DNA from: Polyangium mundeleinium
GTDB taxonomy: Bacteria; Myxococcota_A; Polyangia; Polyangiales; Polyangiaceae
NCBI RefSeq assembly: GCF_028369105.1
Contig: NZ_JAQNDO010000001.1
Span: forward strand, 1,843,711 to 1,907,710
DNA length: 64,000 nt
Direction of reading: 5' to 3'
The first letter of the stretch is position 1; each line of letters begins with the position of its first letter. Shown here in pieces: positions 13,659 to 18,103 of the stretch. Made by a program: the position numbers and the translations under genes. The notes beneath the pieces are model-generated. The model saw only the letters and a program-made list of their open reading frames with translations. It ran no database searches and had not been told where the DNA came from.

Positions 13659-14918
13659 TCAGAACTTGAACGACACGACGCCGCCGCCGCCCGTCGGACC
13701 GACGAAGGGCGCGACGACCGGCTTGTAGAGCTTGGTCGTGGCCGTCTGCTGGGCGGGCTTGTCATCGCCGCCGAACAGCAGCACGGCGCCGGTCACGCCG
13801 AACGTGAGCGCCACGGCGAACGACATGTCCGCGATGAGCGCGTTGCGATCGGTCTTGTCGGCGTTGTCGACCGTCGGGTTCGCTTCGAAGTCGCTCTTCG
13901 CGCCGAGCGCCGAGACGCCGAAGATCGTGCCGACGACTGCGCCCACACCCGCGAGGCCGAGCGTCACGTACGCGGGGACGTACGACTTCGGTGCGGCCGG
14001 CGGAGGCGGCGGGGGCGGCGGAGGCGGCGGGGGCGGCGGGGGCGGCGGAGGCGGCGGGGGCGGCGGAGGCTCGGCTTCGAGCGTCGGCGCCGGCAACTCC
14101 CTCGTCTCCCCGAAGGCGACCTCGACCTCTTGTGGCTGCGAGGTGATGAAGCCCTTCGCCGAGTAGACGAGCGTGTGCTTGCCCGGCTCGAGCTTCAGCT
14201 CGCCGGCGGGCGCGGGCTCCTTGCCGTCGACCGCGACCAGGAGGCCCGCGGCCGTCTCCGGCGTCGTGGCGATCTTGACCGTCGCAGGCGTCTTCTTGAG
14301 CGCCTCGATCTTGGCCTTCGCCTCGTTGACGCGGTCTTCCCACTTCTTGGGATCGAACTTCTTCTTCTTGTCGGCGGCCTGCTCGTCGATCGCCGCGAGG
14401 AAGCCCTGGTAGGCCGCGACGGCCTCCTGCACCTTGTTGAGCTTCTCGAGCGCGACAGCGACCTTGAACTTCGCGTTGAGGCCCGGGAGCGTCTCGTCGG
14501 CGGTCTTGTACGCGTCGAGCGCGGCCTGGAACTCGCCCTTCTCGAAGGCGGTGTCGCCGTCCTTCAGGGCCTGCGTCGCGATGTCCTTCTTCTGCTTGTC
14601 GGTGAGAGGCTTCGCCGGCTTCGCGGCGGCGGTCTTCTCGTCCTTCTTCGCAGGAGCGGCGGCGGCCTTGTCGTCCTTCTTCGCAGGAGCGGCGGCGGCC
14701 TTGTCGTCCTTCTTCGCGGGCGCCGCGGCAGCCGCGGCCTTGTCGTCCTTCTTGGCCGGCGCCGCCGCAGCAGGCTTCTTGTCCGCGGCGGGGGCGGCGG
14801 GCGCAGCGGCAGGAGCCTTCGCCTGCGCGTACGCCGCCGGAGACGCCGTGAGCGCCAACAGACTCGTGAGCACTGCTGCCGTGTGCAACGACGTCAGCCG
14901 GCCCGAACTCGATCGCAT
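13659..14918 (-). CDS. Secreted protein with AAPAKKDDK repeats, TPR-like segment, PEGA-like domain, 26-residue poly-Pro and C-terminal Phe
   Basis: Signal peptide ASPAAYA/QA. A run of 26 consecutive Pro codons lies at ~13997-14069. The C-terminus VVSFKF resembles an OM beta-barrel signature. Confidence 0.55.
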   Translation of the reverse strand: MRSSSGRLTSLHTAAVLTSLLALTASPAAYAQAKAPAAAPAAPAADKKPAAAAPAKKDDKAAAAAAPAKKDDKAAAAPAKKDDKAAAAPAKKDEKTAAAKPAKPLTDKQKKDIATQALKDGDTAFEKGEFQAALDAYKTADETLPGLNAKFKVAVALEKLNKVQEAVAAYQGFLAAIDEQAADKKKKFDPKKWEDRVNEAKAKIEALKKTPATVKIATTPETAAGLLVAVDGKEPAPAGELKLEPGKHTLVYSAKGFITSQPQEVEVAFGETRELPAPTLEAEPPPPPPPPPPPPPPPPPPPPPPPPAAPKSYVPAYVTLGLAGVGAVVGTIFGVSALGAKSDFEANPTVDNADKTDRNALIADMSFAVALTFGVTGAVLLFGGDDKPAQQTATTKLYKPVVAPFVGPTGGGGVVSFKF

Positions 14919-15053
14919 ATCTAAGCCCTCCTCACTCGTCTCTGCTCGACTCTCTGAGTTTCGCTGAATTAACTCGCGCTGCCTGCGCGACACAAGAGGT
15001 TTGAGCAGCGCGCGTCCTTGCACCCTCTCGGTGCCTCCCCCCTCCCGCGTGTG

Positions 15054-15659: not shown

Positions 15660-15787
15660 GAATTCCGTTTACCACAAGTCCTTGTTGTAGATGCTTTGTA
15701 CAATGTTTGGTAATGTTGTACAAAATGTAACTTGACACGGGGGCTGGGAATCCATCAGTCTTTGTTCAATGTTGACGTGACGTTGCG
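15660..15787. promoter_or_regulatory. AT-rich divergent intergenic control region with two TTGTACAA palindromes, TGTT repeats and TTGACA/TTGAC boxes
   Basis: The sequence is ~45% GC in a 70% GC genome. Palindromes were read from the sequence. Confidence 0.4.
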
Positions 15788-18103
15788 ATGTTTGTCGAGT
15801 GTTGTGCGCGGCGACGATCGGCGCGTGGGGCGCCGGCGAGAGCACGGAGGTCGGTCGTGGAGATGAGCGTGACGATGCCGGCGGCGGGGATGGCAGGGAC
15901 GCCCGAACGGATCCCGGGCGCCGCGTTCCGAGCTGCGGCGGCCCTGCACCTGCAACGAAACACGCACCTCTCACGCGAAGCCCTCGCGCGGGACCTGCGC
16001 GATCGGCTCGCGCGGCGCGGGATTCGCTACCACCTGCGCACGCTGAAGCGGCAGCTCTCGGGGGCGGTCGCGACGGTGCCGCCCGAGGTCGACCGCGCGC
16101 TGCGAGAGGCGATCGCCGAGGTGGGAGGCGAGGACGCGATCGCCGCAGTCGAGCGTGCCCTCGTCGAGGCCGGGCTCGCGGGCGCGTCCTCGGCCACGGC
16201 GCCCACGTACATCGTCTGCGAGCGGATGCTGCCGCTCGCCCAGCTCTGGCTCTACCTGCACCCCGAGCGATCGAAGCGTGCGCTCGCTTTTCGCCTGCGC
16301 GAGGAGCTCGAGCGGAGCGGGATCCGCCTCAACGTCGACTCGCTCCAGAGCATCCTCGCCGGTAAGCAGAGGCTCGTGCGGCGCGAGATCCAGGACGCGC
16401 TCTTCGCGCTCCTGCGCCACGATGGCGTGACGTCGTCGGCCGACGCCGAGGCGCGCATCGACGCGATGTCGCGCGAGATCCTCGGCGCGCAGGAGGGCCG
16501 GGTCTTCGAGAGCGCGCGCCGGATCCACGAGCTCGCGAAGGCGTGGAAGGTCGAGCACAAGGAGCCGTCGTCACGCAGGCTCGCGCTCTTGCTCAAGGAG
16601 CGGCTCGCCGAGCGAGGGGTCGTGATCGGCCTGCCGCACGTGCAGAAGCTCGTCGACGGGCGCGCGCGTCGCGTGCGGCATGCAATGTCGAGGGCGATCG
16701 AGTCGATCCTGCGCGGAGACGCGGCGTCTGTGGTGATCGAGGCGCCCGCCACGAAGGACGGGCCGCCCACGGGCGTCGAGCTGGATCTCGCCTGGGTGAA
16801 GGCCGCGCCCATCGCCGAGCTCGCCCGCAAGCACGTGGCCGAGAACCCGGGCATGACGATGCGCAAGCTCGCGATCCGCATTTCGCGTGAGGTCGAGGCA
16901 TTCGGCTACGTCACGAGCCCGAACACGATCCAGCCGATCCTTGGGGGTCATAAGAAGAAGACGCGCGGCTTCATCTACCGCGCCATGCTCCACCTCGACG
17001 GCGTCGCGCCGACGCGCGTGCCCGAGGAGCACGTCTTCGGGGCGCCGCACGGCGAGCGCTCGACCGAGCCTCCACCCTCGGCGGATCCACCGCTCGACGC
17101 CGAGTCACGCCCGCGGAGTCATCTCGCCCCAAAAGCATCGAGCCCTGACGGGGCTGCCCGCAAGCCGCGCCCCGAGGGCCTCGGTTCGAGCCCGGCGGCG
17201 CAGTCCCCGTTCGGGGCGTATCGCGCGGCGATCCGGCGGTATCAGGTGCTCGATCGTGAGACCGAGCTCGATCTCGCCTGGCGGTACCGGCGCGAGGGCG
17301 ATCACGCGGCCGCGAACACGCTCGTGGAGAGCCACCTGCAATTCGTGGTGAAGGTGGCCGCGCAGTACCGAGGTTACGGCATGCAGCTCTCCGACCTCGT
17401 GGAGGAGGGCAACCTCGGCCTGCTCGAAGCGGTCCGACGGTTCGAGCCGTCGCGCAACCTGCGCTTCAAGACGTACGCGGTCTACTGGATCCGCGCCTAT
17501 ATCGTGGACCACTTGCTCCGCGAGTGGAGCATGGTCGGCGGCGGGACGGGGCCGCTCGTGTCGCGCACGTTTTTCCGGCTGCGGCGCGAGCGGGCCAAGC
17601 TCGAAATGCAGCTCGGCGAGGGCGACGCCTCGATCGACACGTTGCTCGCGACCCGGTTCCAGACGACGGAGGACGCGATCCGATCGATGTCGCAGCGGGT
17701 CGCGTCGCGCGACACCTCGCTCGACGCGCAGGCGCGAATGGAGGGCGGGCCGACGCTGCTGGAGATGCTGCGCGATCCGTCGTCGGATCCGGAGCACCTC
17801 ACGGCGAGCGCGGAGCGCGACGCGTTCGTCCGCGGCGTGGTGGGCCGCGTGTGGAAGGCGCTCGACCCACGCGAGCGGCTCATCGTGGAGGAGCGGCTGC
17901 TCTCGGACGACGACGAGGTGAGCCTCGCGGATCTCGGCCGTCGTCTCGGCGTCTCGCGCGAGCGCATGCGGCAGCTCGAAGCGCGTACGAAGTCGAAGCT
18001 TCGCAGCGCGTTCGAGGCCGTCGTGCGCGAAGGCAGCGAGGCTGCCGAGGTGCTGCTCGCGGCGACGCAACCCGAGCCCGAGATCGAAGCGCTCTGCGCT
18101 TGA
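15788..18103 (+). CDS. RpoH-like sigma-70 family factor with ~480-aa N-terminal extension built from four ~55-aa repeats
   Basis: The C-terminal 290 aa carry sigma regions 2-4 (VESHLQFVVKVAAQYRGYG...EEGNLGLLEAVRRFEP). The N-terminus shows four repeats of LAxRLREELERRGIR..L..L.G. Alternative start at 15863. Confidence 0.85.
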   Translation: MFVECCARRRSARGAPARARRSVVEMSVTMPAAGMAGTPERIPGAAFRAAAALHLQRNTHLSREALARDLRDRLARRGIRYHLRTLKRQLSGAVATVPPEVDRALREAIAEVGGEDAIAAVERALVEAGLAGASSATAPTYIVCERMLPLAQLWLYLHPERSKRALAFRLREELERSGIRLNVDSLQSILAGKQRLVRREIQDALFALLRHDGVTSSADAEARIDAMSREILGAQEGRVFESARRIHELAKAWKVEHKEPSSRRLALLLKERLAERGVVIGLPHVQKLVDGRARRVRHAMSRAIESILRGDAASVVIEAPATKDGPPTGVELDLAWVKAAPIAELARKHVAENPGMTMRKLAIRISREVEAFGYVTSPNTIQPILGGHKKKTRGFIYRAMLHLDGVAPTRVPEEHVFGAPHGERSTEPPPSADPPLDAESRPRSHLAPKASSPDGAARKPRPEGLGSSPAAQSPFGAYRAAIRRYQVLDRETELDLAWRYRREGDHAAANTLVESHLQFVVKVAAQYRGYGMQLSDLVEEGNLGLLEAVRRFEPSRNLRFKTYAVYWIRAYIVDHLLREWSMVGGGTGPLVSRTFFRLRRERAKLEMQLGEGDASIDTLLATRFQTTEDAIRSMSQRVASRDTSLDAQARMEGGPTLLEMLRDPSSDPEHLTASAERDAFVRGVVGRVWKALDPRERLIVEERLLSDDDEVSLADLGRRLGVSRERMRQLEARTKSKLRSAFEAVVREGSEAAEVLLAATQPEPEIEALCA

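Follow-up and report, generated by a model that had tools for sequence, protein, structure and literature searches.

Factors of the sigma-70 family choose promoters through their regions 2 and 4, and separate activators help them to do so. Several carry appended domains, such as the C-terminal extensions of ECF41, ECF42, and ECF44, the N-terminal pro-sequences of pro-sigma-E, pro-sigma-K, and BldN, and region 1.1 of sigma-70 itself. The Myxococcus factors SigB, SigC, and SigE are like RpoH (sigma-32). We know of no described RpoH that has a 450-amino-acid (450-aa) N-terminal domain array, and our literature searches on sigma factors with helix-turn-helix (HTH) or XRE N-terminal extensions found nothing relevant. 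Here, we analyze a protein of this kind from Polyangium mundeleinium. It is encoded on the forward strand at positions 15788 to 18103 of a 64-kb stretch of contig NZ_JAQNDO010000001.1 (~70% G+C), which we call the window. The open reading frame (ORF) comprises 771 aa from its mechanical start, ATG 15788, and the residue numbers below follow this ORF unless stated otherwise.

We show that a single polypeptide contains four basic domains, predicted to be similar to XRE and POU-specific HTH domains, followed by a disordered tether of ~65 aa and a sigma-32-like domain. The reading that we prefer, to which we give slightly less than even odds (a probability of about 0.45), is that the protein is a transcription factor fused to its own sigma factor, with a DNA-binding array tethered to the sigma domain.

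The C-terminal part is an RpoH-like sigma factor

Pfam analysis of the C-terminal part of the protein (residues 476 to 744) revealed Sigma70_r2 (PF04542; E = 2.3e-18; residues 512 to 580) and Sigma70_r4 (PF04545; E = 2.7e-9; residues 691 to 739). These matches assign the protein to the sigma-70 family, with region 2 predicted to bind core polymerase and recognize the -10 element and region 4 predicted to recognize the -35 element. The best NCBIfam matches were RpoH models, which aligned end to end and all scored under their cut-offs (TIGR02392, 238.5 versus 323.1 bits; NF005143, 236.3 versus 241; NF005693, 206 versus 315). Because these full-length best matches fall below the RpoH cut-offs, we refer to the domain as RpoH-like and not as a certified RpoH ortholog. 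The sequence VSRTFFRLRRERAKL, which is invariant in all orthologs, is a possible counterpart of the RpoH box, for which the Escherichia coli motif is Q[RK][RK]LFFNLR, located between regions 2 and 3. Ordinary sigma-32 proteins of Polyangia and other Myxococcota (282 to 290 aa) are 52 to 60% identical to this part of the protein. The initial annotation, made from the sequence of the window, had described an RpoH-like sigma factor with a large repeat-bearing N-terminal extension, and the Pfam and RpoH matches, together with the repeat alignments described below, bear out that description.

The N-terminal part is a module of four repeats with a predicted HTH fold

The N-terminal part contains four copies (R1 to R4) of a unit of ~73 aa, which recur with a period near 97 aa (~95 to 100 aa) and are separated by short linkers or extra helices. 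These had been annotated as four tandem repeats of ~55 aa within a 480-aa extension. The number of copies and the presence of a large extension were correct; the unit is longer than was stated, the copies are not strictly head to tail, and the extension measures ~450 aa from the start codon assigned below. The repeats are statistically supported, in that five of the six possible pairs gave local alignments scoring above those of 500 shuffles (z = 4.4 to 14.1, with 0 to 3 shuffles reaching the observed score), while the alignment of R1 with R4 had no significance by itself in this shuffled control. When 51 repeat sequences, sampled from family members and representing all four repeat types, were aligned, they filled 73 columns with one single-residue gap column. 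The resulting consensus was ...LA.LWL...P..S.R.LA..L...L...G.......LQ..L.G....VR..V..A....L. R4 is the best conserved of the repeats, and NTIQPILGGHKKKTRGFIYRAM within it is nearly invariant across phyla (the R4 pattern being NTIQPILGG.KKKTRGF.YRAM). All four repeats are basic (pI 9.1 to 11.2). The invariant columns of the module contain no conserved Cys or His motif.

The module was modeled with AlphaFold2 using a 52-sequence alignment, giving a mean predicted local distance difference test (pLDDT) score of 86.6 and a predicted template modeling (pTM) score of 0.73. This structural check had been proposed with the annotation, and it returned the same HTH-like pattern in all four repeats: a strand, two successive 14-residue helices, an 8-residue helix, a second strand, and a helix of at least 12 residues. 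Dips in pLDDT within the module were confined to the R1-R2 and R3-R4 junctions. A fold search revealed that the best structural neighbors of the repeat are nearly all DNA-binding domains of the XRE, POU, and EspR types; they include C.EcoT38IS, ClgR, phage CI, SinR, DdrO, the POU-specific domains of Oct4 and Brn-5, HNF1, and EspR. According to these models, the repeats have the XRE (lambda-repressor-like) HTH fold, in which helices 2 and 3 make up the HTH. Their second helix and their turn are both long and in this respect resemble the POU-specific variant of the XRE fold, and POU-specific domains with a longer helix 2 and turn still bind DNA.

No Pfam or NCBIfam model covers the repeat region. 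The Pfam HTH families (HTH_3, HTH_31, and related models) reached threshold in neither the window protein nor the 52 relatives scanned, in which scattered sub-threshold matches to HTH_32, HTH_20, and HTH_31 were seen (E = 3e-4 to 0.1). The whole four-copy arrangement has no counterpart in the PDB (all Foldseek E values were above 0.1), and a profile search with a single repeat recovered fragments of the same family only. The repeat profile did match DEP domains (DEPTOR), with an E value of 9e-7 over the whole chain; the best single stretch, of 29 aa, had an E value of 0.005. We rejected membership of the repeat in this group of winged-helix alpha/beta domains of ~80 aa, as the match is local, covering 29 aa, and the fold search gives it no support.

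These features also bear on the alternative that the HTH-like repeats do not bind DNA but act as an adaptor. Their partner would then be some conserved protein, for example a subunit of RNA polymerase, a chaperone, a protease, or a factor that delivers iron-sulfur (Fe-S) clusters or reports on their status, and the repeats would couple the stability or activity of the sigma factor to it. The near invariance of R4 across phyla is what would be expected with a universally conserved partner, and the absence of any Pfam HTH match above threshold, together with the local similarity to DEP domains (winged helices of protein and membrane interactions), points the same way. On the other side are the structural neighbors, which are almost all DNA-binding proteins, and the strongly basic character of all four repeats. 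We consider the adaptor alternative doubtful.

The fusion is encoded by a single gene and is under selection

The true start of the gene is very likely GTG 15857, which gives a product of 748 aa, because GGAGG lies 6 nt before it and the 16-nt block GGAGGTCGGTCGTGGA is identical in 10 of 10 orthologous loci, including loci with merely 55 to 59% protein identity. The gene-caller start for the metagenomic relative P0001 (VEMSVTM...) is the equivalent of this GTG. The block itself (15846 to 15861) spans the ribosome-binding site, the spacer, the GTG start, and the next codon; its invariance even at 55% protein identity exceeds the needs of a ribosome-binding site alone, and it may be a translational control element. 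The G+C content at third codon positions (GC3) is 0.83 to 0.97 over the stretch that begins at codon 31 and ends at the stop, and it drops sharply before codon 31, indicating that the entire ORF is coding in this frame.

A pattern scan for the module across 185,579 species genomes yielded 24 loci, of which the closest to the window is in Polyangium fumosum DSM 14668 (94%). In eight Polyangium genomes, the module and the sigma factor are encoded by a single unbroken ORF of 732 to 749 aa, and several metagenome contigs also carry the fusion frame, with identity down to 58%. In an alignment of 11 full-length proteins, identity was 58 to 95% for the module, 75 to 95% for the sigma part, and 23 to 88% for the linker, which varies in length with the frame always preserved. 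For distant orthologs, linker identity was 23 to 37%, compared with 58 to 65% for the repeats and 75% for the sigma part. The ratio of nonsynonymous to synonymous substitution rates (dN/dS) was 0.18 to 0.30 for the module, 0.08 to 0.26 for the sigma part, and 0.31 to 0.51 for the linker. The interval between residues 411 and 487 offers no ATG, GTG, or TTG that is both in frame and preceded by a ribosome-binding site, and so a sigma-only product could come from proteolysis alone. A true start near residue ~480, which the annotation had named as the finding that would overturn it, is contradicted by the GC3 profile, the dN/dS of the module, and the lack of a usable start in this interval. The sequence comparisons indicate that the N-terminal half is translated and that the fusion is real and under selection.

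The linker opens with the conserved short motif VPEEHVF (17012 to 17032). The corresponding pattern [IV]P.EH[VIL], directly after R4, is kept family-wide in both fused and free-standing members, at the head of a linker that varies elsewhere. This pattern may serve as a short linear motif for interactions.

The ten Polyangium-clade loci share a common synteny, with an NAD_binding_7 gene (-), the gene for the four HTH-like repeats with or without the sigma part (+), a DUF4390 gene (-), and an Omp85 gene (-). The sigma part is cleanly missing, with the module intact and the synteny identical, from Polyangium sp. 6x1 (L010) and a metagenomic relative (L001). Since these two loci fall in different subclades, the sigma part has been lost at least twice. 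The C-terminal tails of the sigma-less derivative P0002 (...IPSMCA) and of P0004 (...NRPFDLAAE) keep the extreme C terminus of the fusion (...EALCA; ...NRSFDFGS...), which is compatible with the remnants that internal deletions of the sigma domain would leave. The converse arrangement may be represented by P0056 of Polyangium aurulentum, a 326-aa protein annotated as a sigma factor that starts inside the linker, is 79% identical, and has the same ...EALCA end; the module is absent from this species in the genome pattern scan, which is the sole basis for calling it absent, and P0056 may be a natural sigma-only variant. Both halves can thus exist alone, and the module has a function for which the sigma factor is not required.

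The C-terminal 100 aa of P0001 (metagenomic; 85% identical) are a +1-frame reading of the sigma region (compare ORF 16887 to 17351 of the window), and hence this contig is frameshifted in the linker, either through a sequencing error or because the gene is a pseudogene. Together with the existence of module-only and sigma-only variants, this frameshift could suggest that the fusion is an artifact or a neutral accident, in which separate genes for a four-repeat regulator and a sigma factor were joined by a sequencing or assembly error or by the recent loss of a stop codon. We regard this as extremely improbable. The frame is unbroken in eight independently sequenced genomes as well as in the metagenome contigs, the linker is variable in length yet always in frame, the sigma part lacks a start codon and ribosome-binding site of its own, and the module has been fused independently to other sigma types ~30 times.

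The module defines a rare family with several C-terminal partners

When 1.84 billion representative proteins were searched exhaustively with a profile, just 181 clusters were recovered. The family is therefore rare, in agreement with the rarity that the initial annotation had claimed for the architecture. Most members are free-standing proteins of 400 to 560 aa from uncultured Myxococcota, Acidobacteriota (including Bryobacteraceae), Woeseiaceae, and one Planctomycetales bin. Among the long members, approximately 33 are fused to a sigma factor, in most cases of the RpoD type with regions 1.2, 2, 3, and 4 (780 to 917 aa; for example, P0177, P0186, and P0204). The form found in Polyangium is the fusion to a sigma-32-type factor (P0181 and P0006), and in a few shorter proteins a group-3-like sigma factor is joined to fewer repeats. 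In two clusters (metagenomic P0029 and P0178), the module is followed by WhiB, a family of sigma-binding Fe-S proteins otherwise typical of Actinobacteria and their phages. At least 12 clusters end in a C-x4-C-x10-C-x2-C tail (the 4-Cys tail), which could bind zinc or an Fe-S cluster. A conserved helical C-terminal segment, motif A (L..YL.EAR.YLP.ARSP.F...RA.K.YG), is found in ~45 clusters of standalone members. Motif A was considered as a sigma region 1.2 because of a likeness seen by eye and was rejected, as hhalign against a sigma N-terminal profile gave a probability of 0.2% with nothing aligned. The sigma domains and WhiB are the C-terminal partners to which a function can be assigned; these partners, which are linked to RNA polymerase, are placed C-terminal to the module. 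Judged by its sequence distribution, the module is an autonomous evolutionary unit. A sensing role, which had been suggested for the extension, is possible only indirectly, as the candidate sensors (WhiB and the 4-Cys tail) are C-terminal partners in relatives and not parts of this protein.

In an AlphaFold2 model of the full-length protein, both halves were well folded, the pTM was 0.40, and pLDDT was below 50 in the linker (residues 394 to 443 of the model); this is a weak test, with few paired sequences and no predicted aligned error. Given this pTM and the low pLDDT of the linker, there is no confident fixed arrangement of the two halves. Library scans of the protein and its relatives gave no match to anti-sigma domain families, and no H-x3-C-x2-C-like motif is conserved.

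These data are relevant to a second alternative, in which the protein is autoinhibited or is a pro-sigma factor, by analogy with pro-sigma-E, pro-sigma-K, BldN, or region 1.1 of sigma-70: the module would mask the sigma domain or block its binding to core polymerase until a signal, or a protease acting in the linker, frees a sigma factor of ~33 kDa. The long disordered linker could be such a protease site, the N-terminal position matches that of pro-sequences and region 1.1, and the annotation of P0056 as a sigma-only protein implies that the sigma part may work without the module. Several observations argue against autoinhibition, however. In addition to the missing anti-sigma, zinc-binding, and conserved Cys or His motifs and the lack of predicted docking between the halves, selection has kept the module in loci that lost the sigma part, and in most taxa the module is a free-standing protein, usually with no sigma gene next to it. 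Its fusions to sigma factors of different groups and to WhiB are not explained by a dedicated inhibitor of one sigma factor. It is basic, unlike the acidic, DNA-mimicking region 1.1, and it is a conserved, folded, and independently occurring module, unlike known pro-peptides. We judge an autoinhibitory or pro-sigma mechanism unlikely, and the suggestion in the initial annotation that the extension acts as an intramolecular anti-sigma factor finds no support on the same points: motifs, docking, persistence without sigma, and diversity of partners.

Candidate operator sites surround a sigma-32-like promoter

The 200-bp divergent intergenic region is the sole AT-rich stretch nearby. Within it, we found a candidate operator cluster. 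The motif TTTGTNCAANGTT occurs three times in the window, all within 15695 to 15773, versus 0.08 occurrences expected; a degenerate fourth copy, TTTGTCGAGTGTT, completes the cluster (S1 to S4), and six Polyangium species share it. S1 and S2 are arranged as an inverted pair that immediately precedes CTTGACA, S3 abuts CCATCAGT, and S4 lies ~30 nt further. In P. fumosum, matching changes in S1 and S2 keep the symmetry of the pair (TTTGTCCAA...TTGGACAAA). A scan with a sigma-70 promoter model upstream of the gene revealed no canonical promoter.

A weight matrix of the TTTGT motif gave its top matches upstream of the gene in every Polyangium-clade locus. No enrichment was observed near the family genes of other phyla, and so no family-wide operator can be claimed. 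In the sigma-less locus of Polyangium sp. 6x1, the CTTGACA/CCATCAG pair has decayed and the TTTGT sites have been kept. This is compatible with the notion that the fused sigma factor reads its own promoter and that the module reads the TTTGT sites.

Free-standing relatives are associated with iron-sulfur cluster assembly genes

To our knowledge, the Rrf2 protein RisR is the only known regulator of the myxobacterial suf operon (PMC9973013). In 7 of 14 distinct non-Polyangium loci, the standalone gene lies in or beside suf genes. It directly follows sufT (FeS_assembly_P), ending operons of the Rrf2-sufBCDSUT type, in L002-4, L016, L017, L018, and L027, and it adjoins suf genes in L020 and L021. 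In L026, it follows an ORF for a putative 4Fe-4S ferredoxin, so named for its Cys motifs alone. Several of the suf-linked members carry the 4-Cys tail, and an Rrf2 gene immediately precedes the gene for the RpoD-type fusion P0186. The operon of Myxococcus xanthus is risR-sufBCDSUT (PMC9973013), and the gene order of the suf-linked loci is that of M. xanthus with one gene added.

These neighborhoods point to Fe-S or redox (stress) physiology for the family. A link to the suf operon, which suggests a metabolic rather than a DNA signal, would also favor the adaptor alternative discussed above. The suf genes are absent from the 64-kb window, in which the neighboring gene is NAD_binding_7, of the siroheme synthase type; at best, this is a loose thematic link to the Fe-S theme.

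Two Woeseiaceae-like loci (L019, 3897 to 3967; L024, 446 to 514) have a 22- to 23-nt inverted repeat that flanks a TTGACA box upstream of the standalone gene. The inverted repeats adjoin a divergent ORF, the N terminus of which was read by eye as MarR-like, and they may be the operator of the product of that ORF.

Features of the locus

The features are listed in Table 1.

Table 1. Positions of the features of the fusion gene and its promoter region in the window
Feature	Position	Strand	Basis or remarks
Complete coding sequence, HTH4-sigma fusion	15857-18103	+	Conserved GGAGG-N6-GTG; GC3 ~0.9; single ORF in eight Polyangium genomes
Shine-Dalgarno sequence GGAGG	15846-15850	+	Within the invariant 16-nt block that includes the start codon; ortholog comparison
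HTH-like repeat R1 (residues ~39-109)	15902-16114	+	Alignments, AlphaFold2; pI 11.2
HTH-like repeat R2 (residues ~139-211)	16202-16420	+	Alignments, AlphaFold2; pI 9.1
HTH-like repeat R3 (residues ~238-310)	16499-16717	+	Alignments, AlphaFold2; pI 11.1
HTH-like repeat R4 (residues ~334-406)	16787-17005	+	Alignments, AlphaFold2; pI 10.4
Pro/Ser/Ala-rich disordered linker, ~65-70 aa	17006-17212	+	pLDDT <50, low identity; fast-evolving, dN/dS 0.31-0.51
Sigma-32-like domain	17213-18022	+	Region 1.2-like start; region 2, 17321-17527; RpoH-box-like SRTFFRLRR; region 4, 17858-18004; Pfam, NCBIfam
Acidic C-terminal tail ending ...EALCA, then stop	18023-18103	+	Ortholog alignment
Candidate operator cluster, four copies of TTTGT-N2-A-N2-GTT	15695-15803	.	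Motif count, conservation, weight matrix
S1	15695-15707	+	13-bp motif copy
S2	15712-15724	-	13-bp motif copy
S3	15761-15773	+	13-bp motif copy
S4	15791-15803	+	Degenerate; conserved in six Polyangium species
Sigma-32-like -35, CTTGACA	15731-15737	.	Between motif copies
Sigma-32-like -10, CCATCAGT	15752-15759	.	Between motif copies; 14 nt downstream of CTTGACA

Elsewhere in the window, a 454-aa ORF (13659 to 15023, minus strand) has no Pfam match. It contains a run of ~30 prolines encoded by a 9-nt tandem repeat (13998 to 14070), a 33-nt tandem repeat encoding AAAPAKKDDK units (14610 to 14773), and a hydrophobic C-terminal segment.

A model for the fusion protein

In the model that we prefer, the module would supply DNA binding in a regulator made of two halves, and the other half, at the C terminus, would connect it to RNA polymerase. 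In Polyangium, the sigma factor would be that connection. By binding operator DNA, the HTH array would keep the tethered sigma factor and core polymerase at, or bring them to, a restricted set of promoters. The model draws on the conserved and selected fusion, the C-terminal partners linked to RNA polymerase, the autonomy of the module, the disordered and fast-evolving linker, the candidate sites, and the Fe-S associations of relatives. A likely target would be the gene's own promoter, with autoregulation through S1 to S4, the four motif copies being equal in number to the HTH domains. Of the roles that had been proposed for the extension, that of a tether fits best with the XRE/POU-like HTH fold and the basic repeats, with DNA binding itself being what we infer from them.

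Several points weigh against this model, beginning with the inferred status of DNA binding. Helix 2 and the turn exceed the canonical XRE length. The putative recognition helix of R4 is almost invariant across phyla, as might equally be expected if it contacted a conserved protein, for example RNA polymerase. The TTTGT motif, which is restricted to the Polyangium clade, lies in a promoter shared with the divergent NAD_binding_7 gene; S1 to S4 may serve that gene and be bound by another regulator, and the equal numbers of sites and domains, four of each, may be coincidental. The reading of the -35 and -10 elements as sigma-32-like depends on comparison with the E. coli consensus, and the decay of these elements was seen in a single sigma-less comparison.

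A broader proposal is that the module and its sigma-32- or RpoD-type partners make up an undescribed class of self-targeting sigma factors, in which operator recognition and promoter melting are combined in one chain with no separate activator, and that the free-standing relatives with 4-Cys, WhiB, or motif A tails form a new family of Fe-S or redox regulators at the suf operons of Myxococcota and Acidobacteriota. We put this forward tentatively, as a possibility that may well prove wrong.

If the model is correct, a multi-HTH array fused to a sigma factor, natural and repeatedly evolved, would be a different design, with activator and sigma factor in one chain. Material for experiments is at hand: P. 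fumosum DSM 14668 is in culture and has a 94% identical ortholog, natural module-only and (by annotation) sigma-only variants can serve as controls, and there is a candidate operator in the gene's own promoter. In addition, the domain family of the module is unclassified, having a model in neither Pfam nor NCBIfam, and is tied to Fe-S assembly operons in Myxococcota and Acidobacteriota.

Comparison with known systems

The sigma factor and the HTH fold are of known kinds; the repeat family, the four-domain arrangement, and the recurrent fusion to sigma factors are undescribed in Pfam, NCBIfam, PADLOC, and the literature that we searched. Like RpoH and the other group 3 factors of the sigma-32 type, the protein has regions 2 and 4, and the RpoH models match its C-terminal 270 aa over their full length; SRTFFRLRR is a possible RpoH-box-like element. 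The protein differs from them in scoring under the RpoH equivalog and subfamily cut-offs.

A protein of similar layout is MzaA, a sigma-70 family protein of the MZA antiphage system (NF041931; PDLC02203), which also has ~700 aa, with a ~450-aa N-terminal region of uncharacterized function and a C-terminal sigma factor. We rejected the identification of the window protein as MzaA. The sigma part alone matches (NF041931, 104.9 bits versus a cut-off of 800; PADLOC, 75 bits), the N-terminal region is unmatched even at E values up to 10, and the neighbors are the NAD_binding_7, DUF4390, and Omp85 genes, with no MZA genes among them.

Relatives of the protein are comparable in their logic, in which a DNA-binding part would be combined with a part that contacts sigma or senses Fe-S clusters, to WhiB7-type activators and to the Fe-S-sensing regulators SufR, IscR, and RisR. 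The likeness lies in the fusions of the four-HTH module to WhiB, in the 4-Cys tails, and in the position at the end of risR-sufBCDSUT-type operons. Unlike these regulators, the window protein has neither a Cys motif nor suf neighbors, the 4-Cys tail of its relatives is a putative Fe-S site, and the DNA-binding part is unrelated to AT-hooks and to ArsR and Rrf2 domains.

Compared with XRE and POU-specific HTH proteins (restriction-modification controller proteins, ClgR, CI, SinR, Oct, HNF1, and EspR), the repeats differ in having no significant Pfam HTH match and a longer helix 2 and turn, and in being present as four copies per chain in a partly rigid arrangement (pTM 0.73). Finally, the protein shares with sigma factors that have appended domains an extra domain that is covalently joined to a sigma-70-family core and likely modulates its activity. 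The appended parts of those factors are sensor or autoinhibitory domains or short pro-peptides, and none is an HTH array, whereas the extension of the window protein also exists as an independent protein family.

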